From: an uncultured Methanoregulaceae archaeon
Lineage (GTDB): Archaea; Halobacteriota; Methanomicrobia; Methanomicrobiales; Methanospirillaceae
Reading direction: 5' to 3'
DNA length: 64,000 nt
NCBI GenBank assembly: GCA_963705255.1
Contig: OY970061.1
Location: 576,001 to 640,000 of the forward strand
In this document: positions 9,962-64,000 of the stretch, one piece after another
How positions within the stretch are numbered: the stretch's first letter is position 1
Layout: every line of letters begins with the position of its first letter
Notes under the pieces: generated by a model
Database searches by the model: none
The model's input: only the letters and a program-made list of their open reading frames with translations
What the model was told of the DNA's origin: nothing
Made by a program: the position numbers and the translations under genes

Positions 9962-10121
9962 TCAGAAGCACAACCGGAAATTCTTTTCACGGAACGTACT
10001 AAAAACAGATTTGGCTGCCGTGAATACATTGCCGGGTCTTTGCCGCCGATCCGTTCCCTATCATCGTTTTTATGTGATTGAAACTCACACATTAATGACA
10101 GGCAGAAGAGAGGATCTTTTT

Positions 10122-10346
10122 ATGTGTGTTGCAGTTCCCGCGGAAGTAATCGAAATAAGAGAGGGAAATATCGGCCTTGTGGACTATGGCGATCTCCGGC
10201 AGGAAGTAAGGCTCGAACTCGTTGATGTGAAAGTCGGTGAGTTTGTGCTCGTCCACGTCGGGTTTGCGATCCAGCGGCTCTCCCGCGAAGAGGGACTTGA
10301 GACCCGTGAGCTGTTCAAACAGGTCTACGCCGCAATGGAGAGTTGA
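10122..10346 (+). CDS. hypC: Hydrogenase maturation chaperone HypC
   Basis: MCVAVP N-terminus and VLVHVGFAI. Confidence 0.95.
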   Translation: MCVAVPAEVIEIREGNIGLVDYGDLRQEVRLELVDVKVGEFVLVHVGFAIQRLSREEGLETRELFKQVYAAMES

Positions 10347-10684
10347 TGCACGAGTACTCCATTGCGTATGACCTTTATGCAACTGCACGGTCTGCCGCAT
10401 ACGAGCATCACGCGGTAAAAATAAAAAAAATCAGTGTGGAAGTCGGCAGGATGGCGATGGTGAACCCGGAACAGGTCGTGTACCTTTTTGACATCATCAA
10501 GGAAGATGATCCTCTCTTTCAAAATGCTGTCCTCGAATGCCATGAGACATCCCCGGAGACCAGATGCGCGTGCGGGTATACCGGGGACGAGATTTACCTG
10601 TGCCCGAAATGCGGGGCTCTTCCGGAACTGGTGAAGGGCAGGGAGATCGTAGTCACCAATGTGGAGATTGAGGTGGAAGATTAG
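10346..10684 (+). CDS. hypA: Hydrogenase nickel metallochaperone HypA
   Basis: MHEYSIA; CxC and CPKCG zinc ligands; GRE. Confidence 0.93.
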   Translation: MHEYSIAYDLYATARSAAYEHHAVKIKKISVEVGRMAMVNPEQVVYLFDIIKEDDPLFQNAVLECHETSPETRCACGYTGDEIYLCPKCGALPELVKGREIVVTNVEIEVED

Positions 10685-22312: not shown

Positions 22313-23041
22313 TCATTCGTACTCGCCACGCACCAGGACAACGGTGATCGTCCCTTCGCTCCCGGCAGAGAGTGCTTTTTGTATCAGCTCTTCGCAGGCT
22401 GCTTCGAGATTATTGCCGTTCTCCATAACGATATCCTGGATGGTATCTCTCTTCACATAATCGTACAAGCCGTCCGAGCTCAGTAACAGGAACGAGTCGC
22501 GTATGTTCAGCTCGGTAAAATCATCGTCCTTCAGGACCCGCGGTTCGCCGAGTGCATGGGAGACCATTTTTGAAAGCTGGGGGTTTTGTCCCGTCTGCTC
22601 CCGCGAATGACTGTCCCGCCCTCTGGTTTCAGGGAAAGCATGGTCCCGTGGGGTTGTAATTCCATCTGAATTGATAATGTAGATACTGCCGTCACCGATA
22701 TCGAGGGCCGTGCAGTCCAGGTTGTCATCAACCAGGCATGCAACGATCTGCGTACCCATGCCTGATCTCTCACGGGACTGTTCGGATTTCTGGCGGATCT
22801 CCCTGTCTGCATCATGGACCGCATTCTCCAGGGTCGTTCTCGGGGATCCATCTATTTTGCGGACTGCACGTATCAGCGACGAAATTGCAATATCACTTGC
22901 AATCCTTCCTGCAGGATGACCGGCAAGACCATCTGCGACTGCAAACACGGAGAAGTTGCCGATTCTCTCAGCGCAAAATGAGTCCTCGTTCGTGTCCTGG
23001 ATCCCTCTTTCCGATAGTGCGATGAAACGGACCGGGGCCAT
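22313..23041 (-). CDS. PP2C/PPM family protein phosphatase (degenerate C-terminal metal motif)
   Basis: NEDS, VADGLAGH, MGT, SSDGL; EGTIT in place of DNIT. Confidence 0.8.
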   Translation of the reverse strand: MAPVRFIALSERGIQDTNEDSFCAERIGNFSVFAVADGLAGHPAGRIASDIAISSLIRAVRKIDGSPRTTLENAVHDADREIRQKSEQSRERSGMGTQIVACLVDDNLDCTALDIGDGSIYIINSDGITTPRDHAFPETRGRDSHSREQTGQNPQLSKMVSHALGEPRVLKDDDFTELNIRDSFLLLSSDGLYDYVKRDTIQDIVMENGNNLEAACEELIQKALSAGSEGTITVVLVRGEYE

Positions 23042-53419: not shown

Positions 53420-54991
53420 ACGGATCTCGTTGTTCAGTTCATTCTTGCAATCCTGCCCATTCTCCTGATCTTTATCGGACTCGTTTTCCTGAAGCAGTCG
53501 GGAACACTCATGGGCATTCTCGGCTGGCTGCTGACCGTCATCCTGGCGATCCTGTTCTTCCAGACCTCGCCGGACATCGCGCTGTATGCATCCTGGAGCG
53601 GCGTACTCTCATCGTTTGGCATATCGCTGATGGTACTTTTTACTATCCTGCAGGTGACCATGATGGATGTGACCGGCGCGATTGCCCGGATCACCACGTA
53701 CATCAAGTCAATCGCGGCCGAGCGGTATGAACAGATCATGATCCTGAACGTAGGGTTCGGGTCGTTCCTGGTCTCGATCGGTGCAACGCCGGTCACGATG
53801 CTGCCGCCAATCATGCTCGCACTCGGGTTCTCCCCTCTAGCTGCGGTTGCCCTGCCCTGTCTCGGGTACGACCCGCTCACCTCCTTCTCGCTCCTCGCAG
53901 TCCCGATCACGATCCCAGCCTCGGTCTTCAACTTCGACCCCAAGCTCCTCGGCTGCACGATCGCCCTCTTCCTGCCAGTCATCTCGACCGGTATTGCGCT
54001 GGGCATGCTCTGGGTCGCGGACGGGTTCGAAGGCGTAAAGAAAGGATTCTCCACGGCACTGGTTGCGGGCCTGACACTCGGTTTCTCTGCAATCGTCTTT
54101 GTCAATCTCCTCCCGGGGTCTGCCATAGGACTCGTCGGTGTCTTCTCGGGTCTTGTAACGATTGCGGTCCTCTTCCTCCTGAGGGCCATCCGGGGAAAGC
54201 CGATCGATACAGCCACTCCTGCCGACACTTCTGCAACGGATACCGGCATGCCGCTCTGGAGGGCAGCCTTCCCCTGGATATTACTCGTAACGTTTGCAAT
54301 CATCATCAGCATCCCCGTCATCCAGACCGGCCTCTACACCTTCCTCGGGCCGATCCAGAAGATCCCCGTCGTGGCCAATAAATTCGTTGACCTGAAGCTC
54401 CTGAACCAGGCCTACTTCTGGGTGCTCGTCAGCACCATCATCGCCGCACCGCTCCTTGTCCGGGGCGGCAAAGAGGCAAAGCATATCCTCACCCTCTGGG
54501 TAAAGCGTGCCTGGAGCCCGACCCTTGCCGCGATGGTCTTCTTTGCGATCGCCTATGTCATGGACTGGTCCGGCCAGTCGGTGATCAACGGGGCCGTGAC
54601 TTTTGCCCCCGGGGCGAATGCCTTCAACATGAACGTGGTGATCGGGCTGTCGCTTGCCCTCGCCTTCGGCATTGCGTTCCCGCTGTTCAGCCCGACACTG
54701 GGCCTCTTTGGAGCCTTCGTCTCCGGAAGCGAGTCGTCCTCAAACGTCATGTTCTACGGCATCCTCAAGAAGTCAACCGATGTCCTGAACCTTAACTTTA
54801 TCCAGGTCTATGCCGCGCACGCGGTTGCCGGTGGTATTGCTTCGGGAGTGGCCGTGGCGAAGATCATCAACGCGGCAGCGGTCGTAGACAAGCTGGGTAT
54901 TGAAGGGGAAGTGGTCCGCAAGGTTGCACCGGTTGCGATCGTGCTGACGATCCTGACCGGCGTGATGCTCGTTGTGATGCTGGTCCTCTGA
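53420..54991 (+). CDS. L-lactate permease (LctP) family transporter; apparent ACG start
   Basis: Many TM helices; FVSGSESSSNVMF motif; frame stays open upstream of 53510 to ACG at 53420, after GGAGGG. Confidence 0.75.
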   Translation, partial: TDLVVQFILAILPILLIFIGLVFLKQSGTLMGILGWLLTVILAILFFQTSPDIALYASWSGVLSSFGISLMVLFTILQVTMMDVTGAIARITTYIKSIAAERYEQIMILNVGFGSFLVSIGATPVTMLPPIMLALGFSPLAAVALPCLGYDPLTSFSLLAVPITIPASVFNFDPKLLGCTIALFLPVISTGIALGMLWVADGFEGVKKGFSTALVAGLTLGFSAIVFVNLLPGSAIGLVGVFSGLVTIAVLFLLRAIRGKPIDTATPADTSATDTGMPLWRAAFPWILLVTFAIIISIPVIQTGLYTFLGPIQKIPVVANKFVDLKLLNQAYFWVLVSTIIAAPLLVRGGKEAKHILTLWVKRAWSPTLAAMVFFAIAYVMDWSGQSVINGAVTFAPGANAFNMNVVIGLSLALAFGIAFPLFSPTLGLFGAFVSGSESSSNVMFYGILKKSTDVLNLNFIQVYAAHAVAGGIASGVAVAKIINAAAVVDKLGIEGEVVRKVAPVAIVLTILTGVMLVVMLVL

Positions 54992-55229
54992 TCCCTTTTT
55001 CGGTGCATCCTGCAAACACTATCCACCAATTCTGCTTTTTTTAATGGCATTTCAGTACCGTCTTTGGATAGCGTGGTCCGGCCGCCGGAGAGGATCGATC
55101 CGGATCCTGCCGGAAAAATTACCAACACCTCATGGTTTGACAAATGTCAATTTCCGGATGGGCACCCGTGCCCTTTGATGGACGAGTCTTTTTATTATTC
55201 GTGGATCAATCTCCTTTCAAGGTACCGGC

Positions 55230-55743
55230 ATGCCCAGGATCTGCCCGCACTGCGGGAAGGAATCAGACGAGGAGTCTCCGCGGTTCTGCAGCGGATGCGG
55301 TGCCCGGATGGACGGGAGCACCCCGCCGGGTACCGGGATACTTCACCCCATCCCGGGATCAGAAGAACCCGCTGATCGCGGGAGTCTGCTCATCCGTGCT
55401 TCCCGGTCTCGGGCAGGTATACAACGGTGAGACCGCAAAAGGGGTTGTCGTCTTTCTCCTCGCCCTCGCGGGACTGGCCTTCTTCCTGATCCCCGGCCTC
55501 ATCGCGTGGTTCTACGGGATGTACAATGCGTATTCCGTGGCGGGAAAGATGAACACCGGGGAGATCGCGTTCCGCGAGACCAGGACGCTTCACATGGTCT
55601 TGTTCATCGTCTTCGCCCTCGTCGTGATCGCTGTCGCGCTCCTGATACTCATCACGATGGTGATAGCGCCCCTGATGAACCAGTTTGGTTCGCTCGATAC
55701 CGGTGATTACCGTACACTGCTCGATACCAACGGATTGGTATGA
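55230..55743 (+). CDS. Zinc-ribbon plus TM2-like membrane protein; frameshift near 55325
   Basis: CPHCG..FCSGCG in one frame; KNPLIAG..SVLPGLGQVYNG in another. Confidence 0.75.
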
Positions 55744-55985
55744 TCGGATGGACCGGTTGATCGGAAGTTACTGAAAATCAGAGTATACAGGAGAGATGCA
55801 CTGCCCTCATGCCGGATTGATCCGGGAACGTTTATGATATGCGATGCATCGGCAGCTTCCCGAATGTAAAAAACCAGGCCATCGGGGAGGGCGGAGAATT
55901 TAAAATCAGACAGGCAGACCTGTCATGGTCTTCTGAATATCTCGTCTGGATAGAACCGGCACGGTGAAGTTATGCAGTCGTACGG

Positions 55986-56460
55986 TTACTCCACCTCTCC
56001 TTCAATCGTTACGGTCTTCTCTTCGACCGGAATCGTGACCCCGGCCCTTGCAAGCGCCTTATCCACAACGTACCGCACTCCACTGCAGCAGGGTACTTCC
56101 CTATGGAGGGGCGTGATCGACTGGATCGTGCGCTGAACAAAATCTCCGCGAGTTTTTTAATATAACCTTCAATGTCCGAATCGAGTTTTTGACAGAAGAT
56201 GATCAGGTCCTGCTCTGCAGGAACTCCGCGTGAAACCCGGGGTAGGCGAACGGGACGCAGTCCGCGGAGGTGAGGATGTCTGCGTTGTCGAAGTACGGGG
56301 CCGCGGGGTTCAGGAGCGCGAGCTGGACCGGCCACTGCCGGAGTTCGGATGCGGTCGTCCCGCCCATCTCGGTGAGTCCGTCAGCGCTCACCCGGAAGAC
56401 CCTCCAGGTGCCGTACCGGAGCGGAGCCGGATCTCGCGGGAGATGACGGCTTCCTGCGAG
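55986..56460 (-). pseudogene. Degraded, 5'-truncated Fe-S cluster-binding protein gene
   Basis: Fragments SELRQWPVQL, ADCVPFA, IFCQKLD, EVPCCSG in different frames; N-terminal ferredoxin part missing. Confidence 0.7.
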
Positions 56461-56604
56461 ACCGACCGCGGCTGGAGAATTTCACGCCGGAATTCTGTTG
56501 TAATCTTCGGCAGTTGCGCAAGGATCCGTGCCGCAAATTTCACGCGGACGATTTTTTATCACAACTGGTGCAAACACCACACCGACGGTAAATGCTACTT
56601 CTCG

Positions 56605-57579
56605 TTACCGGTGCTGTATCAGGTATACGACCAATACAAGTAATGCTGAAACTACCAGAAAAGCGATAAAGATCAGAATGCTTCGCAGCCATATCTGGCG
56701 GTTGGTGAGCAATCCTCCGGCCGCCGGTTCCAGTTCAAGTCGGAATTGCGATAAATCGAGCTCTGCAAAATGCTGTAAATCGTACCGGAACGCGTTAGCG
56801 GATTGATAGCGCTCGTCTGAATTGCGGCGTATCGACTTGAGCACCACGGCCTCTATGCCCGGTGGAATTGATGGCTGGAACATGCGTGGCGAGGCAGGAA
56901 TTGCCGTGAGGTGCTGGTTCATGACAGAAAGGGCATTATCCCCGTGAAATGGGAGGGTGCCCGTAAACATTTCATAGACAATCATTCCCAGTGCGTACAC
57001 ATCAGTACGGGAATCCCCGCGTTTTCCCTGGATCTGTTCAGGTGCCATATAATCCGGTGTTCCAAAGGTATTTGATGCCCACCGCCACGTTACACGCCTG
57101 GAACCTTCAAGCAATGCGCTCCCAAAGTCGAGGATGTGAATTTTACCATCAGGTCCGACAACAACATTTTCTGGTTTCAGGTCACGATGATAAACCCCGT
57201 GAGCATGAAGATAATCTATTGTATCAGCGAGCTGGTCTGCAAGAGAGAGAACTTCGTTGAGGGGTAAAGGTGCATTTTCGCTTATATAGGTGCGGAGTGA
57301 TGTGCCTTCGATATATTCCAGGACAAGGACGACGCAGTCAGTTCCTTCCTTAAAGGTGATCGCTTTTGGGATTGCGGGATGGTTTAACTTCTGCCCGATA
57401 GAAACCTCCCGACGAAAACGCTCATACGTTGCCAGATCGCCAAGCAGGGATGCCTCAGGAAATTTAAGTATTACCAGCTTACCATCGGGAGCGCTTGCCT
57501 TGTAGATCTGGCTGAATCCTCCTTGGGCGAGTAATCCTATTATTTTATAATCGCAGACCACGTCGCCAGTTTTATACAT
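56605..57579 (-). CDS. Hanks-type Ser/Thr protein kinase with C-terminal TM anchor
   Basis: AQGGFSQIY, VILK, RRE, HRDLKPEN, DFG, GTPDYMAPE, DVYALG; terminal hydrophobic helix. Confidence 0.95.
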   Translation of the reverse strand: MYKTGDVVCDYKIIGLLAQGGFSQIYKASAPDGKLVILKFPEASLLGDLATYERFRREVSIGQKLNHPAIPKAITFKEGTDCVVLVLEYIEGTSLRTYISENAPLPLNEVLSLADQLADTIDYLHAHGVYHRDLKPENVVVGPDGKIHILDFGSALLEGSRRVTWRWASNTFGTPDYMAPEQIQGKRGDSRTDVYALGMIVYEMFTGTLPFHGDNALSVMNQHLTAIPASPRMFQPSIPPGIEAVVLKSIRRNSDERYQSANAFRYDLQHFAELDLSQFRLELEPAAGGLLTNRQIWLRSILIFIAFLVVSALLVLVVYLIQHR

Positions 57580-57713
57580 TACGGTACCTCACTTCCCCGT
57601 TGCAGAGATTAATCCATGGAGTCTGGGGAAACCAAAGCAGATAATTCTATCAGAAATTATTTTTATTCCTTTATTATCTTAGGTAACGATGCTGGTACAT
57701 GATATAGTATGAG

Positions 57714-58574
57714 TTACTGTCTTCCCAGGATTCTCTTCCAGGAAAACCGCGGTGCAGCTTGGGGGCCTATCGTTTCTATCCGAAACATAATGGCGGTTAT
57801 ATTATCCGGTGCTCCACCCCTTAACGCAAACCGGACCAGTTTTTCACACGCTGAACTGATATCATTTTCCTGTATTGTGACCAGAATTTCCTCCTCGGTG
57901 AGTTCTGACCACAATCCGTCACTGCAGAGGAGATAGATGTCACCGGGTAGCGGTCGTTCGCGTATTATATCTGCATTCATGAATGGCTCGCCGCCAACAG
58001 AACGGGTAAGCTGGTGGCGCCCCGGATGCTGAGACGCCTGTTCTGTGGAGATCAAGTGCAGGGTAAGCAGATCATTTGCCATCGTATGATCCCGGGTCAA
58101 TAACCCGATGCGGCCATCTCTCACCCGGTAAAGCCGGCAGTCCCCTACATGGCCAATGGTTAACGAATCCTGATCTAATGCGACAACCGTTAATGTTGTC
58201 TGCATTTTATGGAATAATTCAGGATCCAGTTGAGCCTTGCTGAATACGTTCTGGTTTGCCTGCTGCAAAGCACGGCCAACCAGACGGTCCGCCTCCCCAC
58301 CCTGCCATGTATGAAATTCATCTTTAACAGATTTCAGGGCCATTCTGCTGGCAATGGCTCCGCCGCGGTGCCCGCCGAGCCCATCGGCAACTGCGAAGAG
58401 ATACCGCGAGGTCGACTCAGTCTCTGTTTTTACTTCGACCGAATGGGCGACCCAATGGGCATCCTCGTTCTGCGATCGCATCAAACCCTGGTGGGTGATC
58501 GCCCGCCACTTCACAATCACTCCGACCAGGTTTGGCGTCTTCTCTTTCAGTTGCGTCATGGAATTTTCTTTCAT
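57714..58574 (-). CDS. PP2C/PPM family Ser/Thr phosphatase; start uncertain
   Basis: RSQNED, VADGLGGH, HVGDCR, DHT, LTRSVG, CSDGL, DNIT. Confidence 0.93.
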   Translation of the reverse strand: MKENSMTQLKEKTPNLVGVIVKWRAITHQGLMRSQNEDAHWVAHSVEVKTETESTSRYLFAVADGLGGHRGGAIASRMALKSVKDEFHTWQGGEADRLVGRALQQANQNVFSKAQLDPELFHKMQTTLTVVALDQDSLTIGHVGDCRLYRVRDGRIGLLTRDHTMANDLLTLHLISTEQASQHPGRHQLTRSVGGEPFMNADIIRERPLPGDIYLLCSDGLWSELTEEEILVTIQENDISSACEKLVRFALRGGAPDNITAIMFRIETIGPQAAPRFSWKRILGRQ

Positions 58575-58703
58575 TAATGACCACACGTTCCTGTCAACAA
58601 TTAAAAGTGAGAGGGCCCGGATCCGGGCGCTTTTTCATCACTTGCTCACCTCTGGCATTTTTGTTTCATGTTTATCTCTATCAAGGGGGTCAATCTTCTG
58701 CCA

Positions 58704-60284
58704 TTACTCTTTATCCAATCCATTTGCCTGGGGCACATTCGTGGTCAGTACCGGGAGACCCTCTTTCTTCGAGTTATGAATGAACCAGGTCTGACCCGGC
58801 CACCAGCCAGACGGCAACCATTGCGAGCGCAATAATTGCATCGTTTGCTGTGTTTCCCCCGGCACTGATACCGAGCCAGATAACTGCCCCGAACATAACA
58901 AAATTCGCCAGGAAACCCAGTAAGGGGACCAGCTTGTGTTTCAGGATACTGGAATCAGGACGGTGGAAGAACGCCCACAGGGCAATCAGATTGGTCAAGC
59001 CATAGAGAAGGAAGGTGCCTGTGTTGGATGCCAGCGTGATCTGGGTCAGGTTATCCACATTCAGTACCCTGTACGCGCCGAGTGCGGCAGATACCGCCAC
59101 GAGAATCCAAATGCCATAGTGCGGTGTGTCGTACTTTCCATGCAGAACGCCCAGCAGGGTGGGTACCTCTTTTTCCTTGCCCATAGCATAGGTGATGCGG
59201 ACGCCGGTGTTCAGGCAGGCAAGGGTAGTACCAATCAGTGCCAGCACTACCGTCGCAGCAAATATAATCACAAGAATGAACCCGGTACCACCGAGCATCT
59301 GGTCACCGATAACCCGCATCATATCCCCGATGGGAGCCCCGGATGCCGCAACTGCCCCCCAGCCCGAAACTGCAGCTCCTGTTGAATCGGTGCCAGTCAA
59401 TTGAGGGCCGACAAAATAAATGGCAGCGAAGTATTCGAATAAATAGGCAAACGCGCCCTGGATGATAAGAGAGAGAAGGATTGCTCGTTTGATATCCTTC
59501 TTTGGCTGGAGCGCTTCGGAACCTAAGGAGGTCACCGACTCGAAGCCCACCAGTAACAGAATTGCGATGGTCGATTGGAAGAGCAGGTTGGTGAAGTTGT
59601 GCGGAATAAGAATGGAAGAAGCGGTTTGTACATACGCCAGTTCCGGATGTGCGTGCCGGTACAGGATGGCCAGGATCGAAAAGGCAATGAGTGCCGCCAG
59701 CTGGATTGCATTAATAACTATCGCGGTCATGGTCGAACCGGTTATCCCGCGATACGCGATATAGCCGTTCAGGACCGCAAACAGGATGGCTACGAGAATC
59801 TGCTGCCACACTGCTAGGGTGATGCCAAACAAGCCGAAGATGTAGACGATCAGAATGGCCGAGAAGGCCACCATGATCCCCGGATAAATCCAATAATAGA
59901 GATGCGATATCCAGCCCACCAAAAATTTGGCAATACGCGCCCATTTACGGTGCCCGGCCTTTTCTTTTTCAAGAAATGAGGCTTCGGCATAATAATAGGT
60001 AGAGCCGGAACCGGCTTTGGGATATATATTCGCCAGCTCGGCATAGGAAATTGCTGTTAGGAATGCCAGGATGAGCGCGGCCAACAGGCCGGTCCACATC
60101 TCGCCTGCAGTTGTTACACCACCGTTCGTCTGCGCTGCCTGTATCTGGAAGGTGGTCCAGAGAAAGGCTCCCGGAGCAATAAGCGCCATGGCATTCACCA
60201 GAAGCGAGGTCAGGTTCAGCGTGCGTTTCATTGTTCCTGTGGTCTGGCCCCGGTCGTCTGGTTATTACTTTGTGCTTGATCCAT
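58704..60284 (-). CDS. APC-superfamily (amino acid/polyamine/amine) permease; probable indels near 60248 and 58795
   Basis: ~12 TM helices; NAMALIAPGAF, SYAELA..YPKAGS, VGFES, RITYAMG; AAGGAGG before the ATG at 60284. Confidence 0.88.
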
Positions 60285-60323
60285 CAATCAAATCCTCCTT
60301 AACCAAATCATGAACGTGTACAT

Positions 60324-60350
60324 GGAAGGATATTTCCTTCTATATATTAT
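60324..60350 (-). promoter_or_regulatory. TATA box plus palindromic operator, overlapping NrpR-type GGAA-N6-TTCC
   Basis: GGAA GGATAT TTCC at 60324-60337; GAAGGA-N4-TCCTTC at 60325-60340 abutting TATATA. Confidence 0.65.
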
Positions 60351-60545
60351 AAATATTCCTATTTAATCAAAATAAAAACACAAAGCATACCGAATTAATG
60401 ATACTGCTAGTAAAAATCAGCTTGATAATTGTGTGAACATTTCAAATTTCCTGATAAAAACTTAAGAACATACTAGGGAGAAGAAAATTCTGGAGTACTG
60501 AAAAAGGAAGGATAGTCCTTTGTTGAAGATTCCTTCATCCAAATT

Positions 60546-60875
60546 TCATCTCCAAGTTTCATCAGTACGCACTTTGGCCATCATCTCAACCGGCAGGATA
60601 AATATTTTTCCATCACCGAACTTTCCTGTCCTGCCGGTGGCACGGATGATCGAGATGATTGTATCGACATCCTGGTCATTTACGACCATCATAAGCATGA
60701 TCTTGGGCAAGGTATCAACTTCAACCATTTCTCCCCGGTATTCAAGTGTAATACCTTTTTGTTCTCCTCTGCCAGTTATCTCAAGAATGCTCATGGCAAC
60801 AAAACCCTTCTCCTCAAGGGCTTTTTTTATCGTATCGAGTTTGTCAGGCCGTATAATTGCATGAACCATTTTCAT
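60546..60875 (-). CDS. glnK: P-II nitrogen regulatory protein (GlnK-like)
   Basis: AIIRP, GRGEQKG, YRG, LPK, RTGKFGDGKIF, VRT. Confidence 0.92.
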   Translation of the reverse strand: MKMVHAIIRPDKLDTIKKALEEKGFVAMSILEITGRGEQKGITLEYRGEMVEVDTLPKIMLMMVVNDQDVDTIISIIRATGRTGKFGDGKIFILPVEMMAKVRTDETWR

Positions 60876-61021
60876 AAACTTTTCACCTCTCTCTTTGTCA
60901 AGATTGTTTGCTATTTGCATTTGATGCATTTTTGTTATCGGAATGAATAGCATAAGAACCATTCTTAAACTATACCAATAATATCTGTATATTCTGATAT
61001 TGTAATTAGAAATATTTATAT

Positions 61022-61043
61022 TATATAGAAGGAAACATCCTTC
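61022..61043 (+). promoter_or_regulatory. Second copy of the TATA plus GAAGGA-N4-TCCTTC operator, before the GNAT gene and divergent from glnK
   Basis: TATATA GAAGGA AACA TCCTTC; matches the reverse complement of 60325-60346 at all but one base. Confidence 0.65.
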
Positions 61044-61045
61044 TA

Positions 61046-61600
61046 ATGCAACAAGAAATCCGATTATATATCGAAAAACTTAGCAAAGAAAATTTTGATA
61101 ATTTAATTTATCTTCGTACAAAATTTATTGGATCAGAGACTTGGCATCTTGACATTACAGTAATAAATAGACTGAAAGAGGATGCATTTTCAAAAAATCC
61201 TAAATACGAAGCGTATTTAGGGAAAATTGGAGTGGATTGGGTGGCTTATGTAATAATTACAATGTCTTATTCGACTTTTATGGCATTGCCCAGCATTTTT
61301 GTAAATGAAATATTTGTTTTAGATAAGTTTAGGGGTCTTGGAATTGGGCGGGCAATGTTTGAATTTTGCCTAAGAAAAGCAAAAAAAAGAGGTTGCGGAA
61401 AAATTGAGATACCAGTTCGTAACCGAAATAAAAAAGCAAAAAGTTTTTTTGAATTTAACGGAGCTGTTCCGAATGATATGACCTATTATCAGATGGATCC
61501 CTTTGACAAAATAATAGGAAAACCTTCGGGAAAGATGACGTATGCGGATTTCATCAGAAAGAAAAGAACAAATAAACTTTTCCGAGTATATTTCAGTTAG
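61046..61600 (+). CDS. GNAT family N-acetyltransferase (AT-rich gene)
   Basis: YSTF...IFVNEIFV..KFRGLGIG, N.KA..FF...G (SSAT-like). Confidence 0.8.
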   Translation: MQQEIRLYIEKLSKENFDNLIYLRTKFIGSETWHLDITVINRLKEDAFSKNPKYEAYLGKIGVDWVAYVIITMSYSTFMALPSIFVNEIFVLDKFRGLGIGRAMFEFCLRKAKKRGCGKIEIPVRNRNKKAKSFFEFNGAVPNDMTYYQMDPFDKIIGKPSGKMTYADFIRKKRTNKLFRVYFS

Positions 61601-62255
61601 ATGACAATCGTTCAGCATTTTACATAACTCAAAAAAATTCGGTTTCAAAATTTGCAAATCGCACAAAATGAAGTTGTCATATATATTGCGGATTCAAGTC
61701 TGTTGTAAAATATATGAATGAATCATTTGTGTAGCAAGAACATAATGGTGAATTTACCTGCAATCTCCGAGAAATGCAAACACAACAAAACTCAGCCATA
61801 TGCTGTGTATATAATCCTACAAAATTTACTTTCTGTAAGGTGGGGATGATTCATAAAACATGTGCAAAATTGTACCGATTAACGCATATGCATCTTCTTT
61901 TCATCAGCCAGATCCGTGTGAGGTACCCATCCATTGATGTCACAAGTACGCCCCCGTACGGTTTCGGCCCTGGTCTCGACATGAAACCCGTATTCATACC
62001 CGATCGGTCGCCCATTAGCGTCCCACCTCCGGCCACCTGTGATCCGCGGGGATCGGACCGAATTTGTCCCCCGTTTTGGCGAATTTGTCCTCCAGATACC
62101 CACGGAGAGGTCAAACGGAGCCCTGCAAGGCCTTGTTTTCGGTCTGATATATATTGTTCTGTGATGTATCCTTGCGGTTATATGATATATTTTCAAAATG
62201 TCAGCATTCAGGTTCGCATGCGCCGGCCCGCCGCTGCATAGCCAAAATAAAAAAA

Positions 62256-62759
62256 TTACTTCCCGCTTGTCACCGTCTTTGACCCGCGGAGGATCCCGAT
62301 CGTCCCGGTCCGGACGAACTCCTTGATCCCGTACTGGCGCAGCAGTTTCTCTAGTGCATCGATCTTATCCTTGTCCCCTATCACTTGGAGGATCAAGGTC
62401 TTTGTCCCGACATCGACAATGGATGCCCGGAAGATGGAGGCGATCTGCATGATCTCGGCCCGGGATGTCCCGAGTTCTGCCGTTACCTTGATGAGCGCCA
62501 GCTCCCGCTCCACCCGCTCGCTGTCCGTCAGGTCGGAGACCTTGATCACGTCGATGAGCTTGTTGAGCTGCTTCATCACCTGCTCGATCTTTTCGTCGTC
62601 ACCGATGACCACGATGGTGATCCGGCTCATGTCCGGTTCCTCGCACGGCCCGACCGCAAGGCTCTCGATATTGAACCCGCGCCGGGAGAAGAGCCCGGTG
62701 ACCCGGGAGAGCACACCGGCCCGGTTCTCGACAAGGATGGATAAGGTATGCGGTTTCAT
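62256..62759 (-). CDS. ilvN: Acetolactate synthase small subunit
   Basis: LSILVEN..GVLSRV.GLFSRRGFNIESL, ERELALIKV, RTG. Confidence 0.96.
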   Translation of the reverse strand: MKPHTLSILVENRAGVLSRVTGLFSRRGFNIESLAVGPCEEPDMSRITIVVIGDDEKIEQVMKQLNKLIDVIKVSDLTDSERVERELALIKVTAELGTSRAEIMQIASIFRASIVDVGTKTLILQVIGDKDKIDALEKLLRQYGIKEFVRTGTIGILRGSKTVTSGK

Positions 62760-64000
62760 GATCGGGGGTGCCCTCCTATCATCTCGTTGATCGCAGCACC
62801 GGCCGGGACCATCGGGAAGACATTCTCTTCGCGCTCGATCCTGAAGTCCATCACAAACGGCCCGTCACAGTCAAGGGAGACCTGCAGTGCCGGGAGTACC
62901 TCGTCCGGAGATTCGACCCTTGTCCCTTCGATACCGTAGGCGTTGGCGATCTTCACGAAGTCGACCGGCGGGAGCTCGGTGAACGAATACCGGTGGTCAT
63001 AGAAGAGCTCCTGCCACTGCCGGACCATGCCAAGGTACATGTTGTTCAGGATGAGGACCTTCACTGGGATCCTGTTGGATGCAATGGTACCAAACTCTTG
63101 GATATTCATCTGGATACTGCCATCGCCGGCAATATCAAAGACCGGTACATCCGGGCGGGCAAAATGCGCCCCCATCGCGGCAGGGAGCCCGTAGCCCATG
63201 GTGCCAAGACCTCCCGAGGTTATCCAGGTGCGGGGGTTGTGGAAACAGAAGTGCTGTGCAGTCCACATCTGGTTCTGCCCGACTTCAGAGACGATCACGG
63301 CCTTGTCCCGGACAAGGTCGCTCAGTGTCCTGATAATATACTGCGGGTGCAGTGCCCCGTTCTCCGGGCATTTGAGCGGGTGGTGCTGTTTCCAGTGCTT
63401 AATCTTTTTCAACCAGATCTCGTGGGCATCACGCTTCTTTATAAGCGACAGCAGGTCTTTTAATACCGCTTTGACATCGCCGACAATAGGTACATCGATG
63501 CGCTTGTTCTTGCCGATCTCGGCCGGGTCGATATCGATATGGATGATCTTCGCATGGGGAGCGAAGGTCTCGATCTTCCCGGTCACCCGGTCGTCGAACC
63601 GTGCCCCGATCGCGATCATGAGATCGCATTCCGTCACCGCGAAATTTGCATATTCTGTACCGTGCATCCCCAGCATGCCGAGATTGAGCGGGTGATGGCA
63701 GGGAATGCACCCGATCCCCATCAGCGTTGTCGTGACCGGAATGGATGCAAGCGTAGCAAATTCCACCAGTTCGGGCGAGGCATTGGACGAGATGATGCCC
63801 CCGCCGGCATAGATGAGCGGGCGCTCTGCATGCCCGAGCAGATCAAGAGCTTTTTCTATCTGGCGCTTGTGGCCCTTGTAGGTGGGATTGTAGCCGCGGA
63901 GAGTGACTTTCTCCGGTAACTTCACATCGTCGGACAGACCGGTACTCACGTCCTTTGGGATATCGATCAGGACCGGTCCCTGCCTGCCGGTCCCTGCGAT
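62756..64000 (-). CDS. ilvB: Acetolactate synthase large subunit (5' end outside the window)
   Basis: GPVLIDIPKD, GMLGMHG, GARFDDRVTG, GLGTMGYG, GDGS, LGMVRQWQ. Confidence 0.96.
   Translation of the reverse strand: MAGTGRQGPVLIDIPKDVSTGLSDDVKLPEKVTLRGYNPTYKGHKRQIEKALDLLGHAERPLIYAGGGIISSNASPELVEFATLASIPVTTTLMGIGCIPCHHPLNLGMLGMHGTEYANFAVTECDLMIAIGARFDDRVTGKIETFAPHAKIIHIDIDPAEIGKNKRIDVPIVGDVKAVLKDLLSLIKKRDAHEIWLKKIKHWKQHHPLKCPENGALHPQYIIRTLSDLVRDKAVIVSEVGQNQMWTAQHFCFHNPRTWITSGGLGTMGYGLPAAMGAHFARPDVPVFDIAGDGSIQMNIQEFGTIASNRIPVKVLILNNMYLGMVRQWQELFYDHRYSFTELPPVDFVKIANAYGIEGTRVESPDEVLPALQVSLDCDGPFVMDFRIEREENVFPMVPAGAAINEMIGGHPRS

Follow-up and report, generated by a model that had tools for sequence, protein, structure and literature searches.

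The window analysed here is a stretch of 64,000 nucleotides (nt) from an uncultured Methanoregulaceae archaeon, a methanogen of peat (contig OY970061.1, positions 576,001 to 640,000), and near one end it contains a five-gene cassette in which an APC-superfamily permease, a PP2C phosphatase and a Hanks-type Ser/Thr kinase are accompanied by a PII protein and a GNAT acetyltransferase. We read it as a horizontally acquired, nitrogen-regulated transport and signalling cassette with an ancient core of permease, PP2C and kinase. The five genes had been proposed in an initial annotation made from the sequence alone, and the listing of open reading frames (ORFs) and profile scans found all of them in place. 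The features are the following.

56586-61616: five-gene cassette, aligned by blastn (window 61616-56586) at 92% to positions 4612-9640 of L001, the closest relative of the window locus, and inverted with respect to it.
56605-57579, minus strand: Hanks-type Ser/Thr kinase, 324 amino acids, tail-anchored (Pkinase PF00069, E 7e-47, 160.4 bits against a cut-off of 31.7).
57714-58586, minus strand: soluble PP2C (PPM) Ser/Thr phosphatase (PP2C_2 PF13672, E 2e-13, 50.6 bits against 24; PF00481, 49.3 against 20.3).
About 58704-60284 (assembled ORF 58774-60231), minus strand: APC-superfamily permease of an uncharacterised subfamily (AA_permease_2, E 1e-21, 77.9 bits against 27).
60325-60365: permease-operon promoter element, consisting of an A/T box and then, in the direction of the gene, the palindrome GAAGGA-N4-TCCTTC; arm 1 of a 41-nt inverted repeat.
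60546-60878 (ORF to 60962), minus strand: module-specific GlnK-like PII, 110 amino acids (P-II, E 5e-26, 91.5 bits against a cut-off of 25).
61003-61043: second A/T box and palindrome, in the PII-GNAT divergent region; arm 2 of the repeat, ending 3 nt before the GNAT ATG.
61046-61600, plus strand: GNAT acetyltransferase, a lineage-specific accessory (Acetyltransf_1, E 7e-11, 42.9 bits against 20.7).

Three parts make up the kinase: a catalytic domain, a linker bearing the motif LDLSQF, and a single C-terminal transmembrane (TM) helix, which has an invariant Phe among small residues and stops 2-5 residues short of the stop codon. Its motifs are VILK at 36 (Lys36), RFRRE at 54, HRDLKPEN at 131, DFG at 151 and GTPDYMAPE at 173; the activation loop reads RRxTWR, and the catalytic residues are invariant in 31 aligned relatives. 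The protein ends in the TM helix and has no extracellular PASTA repeats: the PknB_PASTA_kin model (NF033483) is matched over its catalytic domain only (model positions 9-271 of 563), at 245.9 bits, and the cut-off of 450 is not reached. The absence of a sensor domain, already remarked on in the initial annotation, extends to the family, 63 of 64 relatives having a C-terminal TM helix and no extracellular part. The phosphatase contains the metal-binding motifs NEDA, DGLGGH, SDGLW and DNIT, and the claim that both enzymes have intact catalytic motifs is borne out. On the Stp1-like equivalog NF033484 it scores 206.4 bits, below the cut-off of 230; its start is uncertain, because short-read contigs carry an indel at 58574.

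Both the profile cut-off and a LeuT-type fold place the permease in the APC superfamily. Its AlphaFold2 model (pLDDT 75, pTM 0.79) is matched by Foldseek with probability 1.00 to GkApcT, AdiC, LAT1, BasC, ApcT, KimA and NKCC1, at TM-scores of 0.6-0.78 for the first five, and phosphorylated NKCC1 structures are among the matches. The protein stays below every subfamily cut-off (TIGR00909, 87 against 557; BcaP, 45 against 690; FrlA, 32 against 800); a phmmer search of PDB sequences returned no match, the profile search gave distant CAT/LAT matches only, with plant CAT4 as the best (2e-9), and public sources, in which at least 8000 relatives were scored, offer generic names only. Conservation in the family is high, columns being on average 66-70% identical across phyla, and the unwound TM1 motif, A-P-G-A-F, is unusual. 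Hydrophilic Ser/Thr-rich N- and C-tails are found in all permease clades, and a K-x-[T/S]-L-x-x-T segment is invariant just before TM1; in 35 sequences (L001 numbering) K20, L23 and T26 are invariant and position 22 is Thr in at least 90%, the exceptions seen in the alignment being Ser.

As assembled, the permease ORF of the window is frameshifted near both ends in comparison with its orthologues, and both hydrophilic cytoplasmic tails are lost. These frameshifts are attributed to assembly indels, because short-read contigs disagree with them, having one base fewer at 58790 in runs X1 and X3 and one additional C behind 60247 in run X1 (which may be the source sample), and because one amt gene (G000:C1:896839-898012) and one nifH-like gene (1790396-1791200), outside the window, are also split by 1-base indels. 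Such split genes, and the 89.5% completeness of an assembly that consists of a single 2.6-Mb contig, fit long-read indel errors. The true extent of the permease gene is about 58704-60284; an orthologue annotated by NCBI has 526 amino acids.

Conserved linkage was analysed in 79 permease loci of other genomes, obtained in a scan of species representatives, by tblastn with the window proteins and Pfam annotation of the neighbours; the loci scored as misses include some that are cut by contig ends. PP2C is present in 72 of these loci, the kinase in 66, a glutamine synthetase (GS) in 42, PII in 26, Amt in 18, a PucR-type regulator in 13, nifD in five, GNAT in five and nifH in four, and GlnD is also found among the neighbouring nitrogen genes. 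The linkage of permease, PP2C and kinase, which extends over Chloroflexota, Dormibacterota, Actinomycetota and two methanogen orders, is far beyond chance. Thus, of the synteny anticipated by the initial annotation, the part concerning kinase and phosphatase stood, while PII and GNAT do not belong to the core. The usual bacterial order is APC-PP2C-kinase-GS on a single strand, with PP2C directly downstream of the permease; in most bacteria the fourth gene is a GS in place of PII, and for 36 of 48 GS hits the start falls, on the same strand, between -60 and +150 nt from the end of the kinase gene. The order is PucR-PP2C-kinase-GS-APC-Amt-PII in one Dormibacterota clade, a divergent amt-glnK pair adjoins APC-PP2C-kinase-GS in Actinomycetota, and in Methanosarcina amt-glnK is divergent from APC-PP2C. 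The permease is the only membrane protein conserved in the module. It had been supposed to take the place of Amt; this is not supported, because Amt-GlnK is often adjacent to it (18 of the 79 loci), and the genome of the window has its own amt and glnK genes.

The association was also approached from the kinase, using generic kinase patterns and the best 80 of 610 stretches, which form a sample and no census. Among these 80, APC-PP2C-kinase is found at 17 of the 28 closest kinases (three repeat earlier loci), and 25 of these 28 lie near one or more of APC, Amt, PII, GlnD, GS and nif; Acidobacteriota, Ignavibacteriales, Binataceae, Myxococcota and Bacillota are added to the distribution. Conversely, the permease is beside none of the 52 more distant kinases, indicating that the association is specific to this kinase subfamily. 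The GS adjacent to the kinase is a divergent type-I enzyme: it reaches 277-466 bits on the GlnA model, where canonical GS reaches 634-655, and its scores on the gamma-glutamylputrescine and type-III GS models are similar. It keeps 87 of the 123 columns invariant in canonical GS, as well as the motif FDGS[AS], which we take to include the ammonium-site Asp, and it is 40% identical to the alpha-type GS of the genome of the window versus 34% to the other GS of that genome.

The Dehalococcoidia clade has, between PP2C and kinase, another and longer APC permease (as many as 802 amino acids), whose C-terminal 350 or so residues have no Pfam match (L012:8382-10790, L032:8632-10491, L038:5129-6964, L034:11929-13428); in L041 a Usp-domain gene occupies the place of this second permease. 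Proteins of 109-112 amino acids that consist of an OmpR-type winged-helix domain for DNA binding only, without a receiver (L034:7578-7916 and 10089-10418; L076:5006-5335), adjoin PII and GS genes in Chloroflexota loci. A second Methanosarcina tail-anchored kinase (L104:1-7969) is found about 4.3 kb from nifH-nifI1-nifI2-nifD, with no permease within 7 kb.

PII and GNAT lie outside the ancient core and were added in Methanoregula. The PII gene probably starts at 60878, since this is where both the Pfam match and its orthologues start. The protein is 58% identical to the two GlnK paralogues of the genome, and PII of the module type is present in all 13 Methanoregula loci (window counted), with 77-97% identity in the 12 others. 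Its gene is either directly upstream of the permease, as in six of the 13 Methanoregula loci and also in L076 and L039, or beside the kinase; in seven Methanoregula loci this kinase-side arrangement has a NifI1/NifI2-like pair between PP2C and kinase. The base of the T-loop reads VDTLPK, with Thr at a position where other aligned PII proteins have I, L, M or F, and both Tyr51 and Ser49 are missing, positions 49-51 being E, M and V when counted from the MKMV start. By our assumption, Tyr51 is the site of uridylylation or adenylylation and Ser49 that of phosphorylation. The numbering of the two sites is supported by the available sections of a review (PMC4285133). GNAT reaches no equivalog cut-off; the five of the 79 loci that carry it are all from Methanoregula, which makes six of 13 Methanoregula loci with the window, and they represent one sub-lineage. 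Elsewhere in the assembly an amt-glnK-PII-PII cluster is found (G000:C1:895499-898012), in which one of the last two PII-like genes has a long T-loop insert; these two genes resemble the pair between PP2C and kinase in the seven Methanoregula loci and are distinct from NifI1 and NifI2 of nif operons.

A link to nitrogen is also indicated by the promoter elements. The 41-nt inverted repeat flanks the PII gene and its arms are 90% complementary; the exact 16-nt palindrome has two sites in the 2.6-Mb genome, both in the cassette, and none in the control. With up to two mismatches it is found in all 13 Methanoregula loci between the permease gene and a TATA-like box, and all four loci that include nifH have it upstream of that gene; it abuts the GNAT start in five of the six loci with GNAT (window counted). 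In five related genomes six exact palindromes were found in three, all of them in the locus that combines nifH and the cassette; two genomes had none and the controls gave 0. When one mismatch is allowed, the genome of the window has 17 sites, most with GC-rich spacers. In the genomes searched, cassette and nifH share a private operator, and since the operator is the same palindrome, the cassette should be expressed under nitrogen limitation. Together with the GS, Amt-GlnK, GlnD, PucR and nif neighbours, this agrees with the nitrogen context originally proposed for the module. The NrpR consensus, given as GGAAN6TTCC in the accessible part of PMC2723118, is contained in the palindrome at the promoter of the permease and, with a single mismatch, at that of PII/GNAT, and the genome carries two NrpR-domain (PF01995) genes. 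Two GGAAN6TTCC sites by the second GS gene are surrounded by GC-rich sequence; the only AT-rich site near nitrogen genes is that of the cassette.

In the loci with nifH, about 400 nt separate the operator and TATA box from nifH (L001:9930-10365; L006:2450-2880, reverse; L007:11300-11780; L035:3820-4290, reverse). This leader opens with a Shine-Dalgarno sequence and an ATG that begin a small ORF, and blocks of it are conserved across the four loci. An Rfam scan of L001 and L007, with the leader included and with L006 and L035 outside the scan, returned no family; the stretch may encode a leader peptide or act as an RNA regulator of the nif operon. In Methanosarcina (L014, L017, L019-L021, L024) the divergent region between amt-glnK and the permease contains two or three copies of a motif with ATTACCGG, about 150-260 nt upstream of the permease, which may be a different nitrogen operator.

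Phylogenetic analysis (FastTree, 77 permeases) unites Methanoregula and Methanosarcina with 99% support; their clade is nested, along with Dehalococcoidia and a single Bathyarchaeota sequence, within a wider bacterial radiation. The three major permease clades recur in the trees of the kinase (64 rows) and PP2C (68 rows), where mapping them takes two label changes, the smallest number possible, and in each of the three trees the methanogens are a single group; the shared deep clades indicate that permease, PP2C and kinase travelled together, which rules out unrelated donors for the three core genes, the outcome that the initial annotation had named as contrary to its proposal. Orthologues of all three genes are limited to G000, G002 and G020, plus a fragment in G018, in a sample of 41 Methanomicrobiales genomes. 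This presence in three or four of 41 relatives and the nesting among Dehalococcoidia argue that the cassette was transferred; to judge from the trees, the core cassette has passed between bacteria and archaea, in a direction that is an inference from a permease tree rooted at its midpoint only.

The surroundings of the cassette also differ from those in relatives. The PII and GNAT genes have a GC content of 0.31-0.39 and the remaining three one of 0.45-0.54, compared with 0.55-0.61 for the flanks, which confirms the AT-rich stretch noticed at the outset, and the truncated neighbouring pseudogene is likewise real:

56009-56391, minus strand: 3' remnant of a 4Fe-4S protein gene, severed at the cassette boundary; the intact gene, of 306 amino acids, is at L001 2516-3436 (minus strand).

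The remnant itself has no Pfam match. Of the two flanks only the left one, 53473-56364, is common to the window and L001, in the same orientation, and homology breaks at 56364, where the 4Fe-4S gene is cut; in L001 the other side of the cassette is occupied by nifH-nifI1-nifI2-nifD. A simple inversion of the L001 arrangement was considered and is excluded, L001 2896-4612 and the nif genes having no counterpart in the window or its genome. The junctions lie at 56364-56586 on the left, through the 4Fe-4S gene, and at 61616-62250 on the right, where about 630 nt without a recognisable gene precede ilvN. A scan of 55000-63000 detected no tRNA and hence no tRNA integration site, and around the cassette there are no flanking direct repeats; apart from the 41-nt inverted repeat, only short repeat families occur there, probably by chance. 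Window DNA at about 18-22 kb is homologous to sequence 2-3 kb from the cassette in L002 and L006, indicating that the region was rearranged among relatives; a second PP2C-like gene, 28% identical to that of the cassette, is found at 22322-23032 (minus strand).

We propose, with a probability of about 0.7, that the module is a nitrogen-linked permease coupled to its own kinase/phosphatase pair. That the permease is itself the phospho-target is a more tentative claim, standing slightly short of even odds. In this mechanism the kinase would dock on the permease through its TM helix and phosphorylate Ser/Thr residues of the cytoplasmic N-terminal segment and of the tails, the best candidate being the always-Thr/Ser position of K-x-[T/S]-L just before TM1, and PP2C would take the phosphate off again; uptake of a nitrogenous solute, which may be an amino acid, an amine or an ammonium analogue, would then be switched by nitrogen status. 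In bacteria the operon runs into the divergent type-I GS, amid amt-glnK, glnD and PucR-type regulators; in Methanoregula the core has recruited its own GlnK-like PII and, in one sub-lineage, GNAT, and lies beside nif in relatives. The modelling of a kinase-APC complex, suggested in the initial annotation as a check, was performed with the intact L001 proteins and alignments made for this analysis and gives weak support: the score is 0.56, the best of three controls reaches 0.00, at least 39% of the contacts agree between runs and the partner has a pLDDT of 73 or more. In the calibration, 116 of 157 solved complexes and 2 of 215 mismatched pairs came up to the mark; with scores of 0.60 or below, 18 of the 157 solved complexes and both passing mismatches did so. 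Because of the alignments used, these counts hold only roughly for this prediction.

Several observations weigh against this proposal. Predicted complexes of the weak class are more often wrong than right unless the interaction was likely beforehand, and the candidate phosphosites are short, with a conservation that could be structural. The translational coupling of kinase and GS in bacteria fits GS as a downstream target at least as well, and the position of PII between PP2C and kinase in the seven Methanoregula loci fits a PII target at least as well. In Methanosarcina the kinase (65-70% identity) is outside the operon, about 6 kb off or elsewhere, in one or two copies, and two Bathyarchaeota loci have the permease without kinase or PP2C. 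Nitrogenase is apparently missing from the genome of the window, the best NifH and NifD matches being 50% and 29% identical, values that we take to fit the cofactor F430 enzymes CfbC and CfbD, so that the regulatory partner found in relatives is absent here. Of the sequencing runs listed as containing the stretch, none is of RNA. Finally, GGAAN6TTCC is not enriched genome-wide (71 sites versus 68 and 70 in controls of the same composition) and was not found upstream of the glnA, amt and nifH-like genes of this genome; NrpR as the binder of the operator is therefore uncertain.

The same components can be arranged in the opposite direction, the permease being the sensor for the kinase, which, reset by PP2C, would phosphorylate GS in bacteria or PII in Methanoregula. 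This is a close second to the permease as target, and taken by itself it is possible but doubtful. A kinase without a sensing domain of its own, the 36 of 48 GS genes that begin at the kinase end, and the Methanoregula PII genes, present in 13 of 13 loci and standing in the place of GS or between PP2C and kinase, all speak for it, as do the Thr of VDTLPK, absent from other aligned PII, and the precedent of LysP as a co-sensor for CadC (available part of PMC3096576). However, the gene most tightly tied to the permease is PP2C, directly downstream and in 72 of 79 loci, and 37 of the 79, some of them cut by contig ends, have no GS; moreover, the T-loop of the module PII is without Tyr51 and Ser49, and the sections available of PMC4285133 report no archaeal PII modification. 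The complete pathway, in which the permease would report the solute through kinase and PP2C to set the phosphorylation of GS or PII as a prokaryotic transceptor, is rather unlikely. If PII is instead taken to gate the APC permease as GlnK gates AmtB, with the permease standing in for the ammonium channel, its position directly upstream of the permease in six of 13 Methanoregula loci, L076 and L039 would be accounted for, and cyanobacterial PII is described as regulating transporters besides Amt (available part of PMC6603209). This gating is improbable: 53 of the 79 permease loci have no PII, PII near the permease in bacteria and Methanosarcina is paired with amt, the genome has its own amt and glnK, and the fold is that of an APC (LeuT-type) solute carrier and not of a channel. 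As a general model, therefore, the PII-gated permease first put forward is not retained, Amt-GlnK often being alongside and PII being a lineage-specific addition.

A pathway of amine assimilation or detoxification, with import of a polyamine, methylamine, ethanolamine or analogue, conjugation by the GS-like enzyme or GNAT and a generic kinase/phosphatase pair, also seems hardly probable. It would suit the divergence of the adjacent GS (277-466 versus 634-655 bits, with similar scores on the gamma-glutamylputrescine and type-III models, and 87 of 123 canonical columns retained), the PucR-type regulators in 13 of 79 loci and some automatic names: one of three ESM-Atlas APC-permease clusters at 0.98 is called 'Dimethylamine permease', which is a lead only, and names at JGI include 'basic amino acid/polyamine antiporter'. 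This GS may itself act as a gamma-glutamyl-amine ligase. Nevertheless, it keeps FDGS[AS] and is closer to the alpha-type GS of the genome of the window (40%) than to the other GS there (34%), no other amine-pathway genes occur in the annotated loci, and GNAT is limited to one Methanoregula sub-lineage. The idea that the cassette is a decaying, non-functional leftover of transfer in this genome is very improbable and largely refuted; the cassette does abut a truncated gene, is inverted relative to its closest relative and has an assembled permease frameshifted at both ends, and nif is apparently missing from the genome, but short-read contigs are without both frameshifts, the other split genes are typical of indel errors, the catalytic motifs are all intact, both promoter elements are exact and the proteins are 96-98% identical to those of L001.

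Compared with known systems, the phospho-switched permease proposed here recalls several of them and coincides with none. As in Stk1/Stp1-type pairs (PknB-PstP, StkP-PhpP), genes for a Hanks kinase and a PP2C are side by side, and the best NCBIfam matches are PknB_PASTA_kin (246 bits, catalytic part) and Stp1_PP2C_phos (206); unlike them, the cassette scores under the cut-offs of 450 and 230, has no PASTA or extracellular domains and is linked to a permease and GS, whereas Stk1/Stp1 are linked to cell-wall and division genes. With GlnK-AmtB it has in common a PII gene beside a nitrogen-related transporter gene, the Methanoregula PII being GlnK-like (58% identity), but the transporter is an APC carrier, PII is missing from most loci and amt-glnK is often alongside; in the window the neighbours of PII are the APC permease and GNAT, and the amt genes are elsewhere in the genome. 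Nitrogen-compound or APC-superfamily carriers switched by Ser/Thr phosphorylation of their cytoplasmic tails are found in eukaryotes, with Npr1 acting with Mep2 or Gap1, the Ssy1 sensor, and SPAK/OSR1 with NKCC1 as examples; this is an analogy of mechanism, the eukaryotic kinases being unrelated and not encoded with the carrier. In LysP-CadC an APC-family permease is tied to a membrane-anchored signalling protein that is blind to the solute, as described in the accessible part of PMC3096576; there the partner is a ToxR-like DNA-binding protein, here a Ser/Thr kinase with a phosphatase, whose contact with the permease is a weakly supported prediction. Cyanobacterial PII-P/PphA likewise combines PII, PP2C and an expected Ser/Thr kinase in nitrogen signalling; according to the sections available of the 2015 Merrick review (PMC4285133), the cyanobacterial PII kinase was at that time unidentified and no PII modification was known in archaea. 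The PII of the window, however, is without Ser49 and is an add-on, not the core of the module. The GGAA-N6-TTCC palindrome next to a TATA box, common with nifH, resembles the NrpR-controlled promoters of nif, glnA and amt, and in the part available of PMC2723118 the Methanococcus maripaludis NrpR regulon also holds an amino-acid transporter; the cassette palindrome is longer, differently phased (GAAGGA-N4-TCCTTC) and confined to nifH and the cassette in the genomes searched, not being found at glnA or amt.

A full-text literature search, most subscription journals being outside its coverage, found no description of such a module, and the sections available of a review of archaeal phosphorylation (PMC5007285) make no mention of it; in the literature searched, this agrees with the initial annotation, which knew of no description in methanogens. 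The elements combined are of known kinds, namely Hanks kinase/PP2C pairs, trigger transporters and PII-linked transport, and the data suggest that their broad distribution as a unit had previously gone unnoticed.

Nitrogen control in bacteria and archaea is generally attributed to PII, GlnD/GlnE, NtrBC, GlnR/TnrA and NrpR, and to our knowledge prokaryotic Ser/Thr kinase/phosphatase pairs are mostly without known inputs or dedicated targets. The module described here joins a sensor-less kinase, a phosphatase, a permease and GS or PII in many soil and peat phyla and in two methanogen orders. If the permease were indeed under the control of its own kinase and phosphatase, nitrogen uptake and assimilation would come under a further level of control, by phosphorylation, much as nutrient carriers are controlled in eukaryotes, and the kinase-permease pair would be a tractable system for asking how tail-anchored kinases get their signals. 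Should the transceptor arrangement be true, archaea would have in it their first covalent system for modifying PII, and the long-sought PII kinases would gain a candidate family; the pathway would be packaged in a cassette that crosses the boundary between bacteria and archaea in peat. A regulatory cassette that moved recently between bacteria and methanogens of nitrogen-poor peat and came to lie beside nitrogenase genes also bears on how peat methanogens cope with nitrogen limitation.

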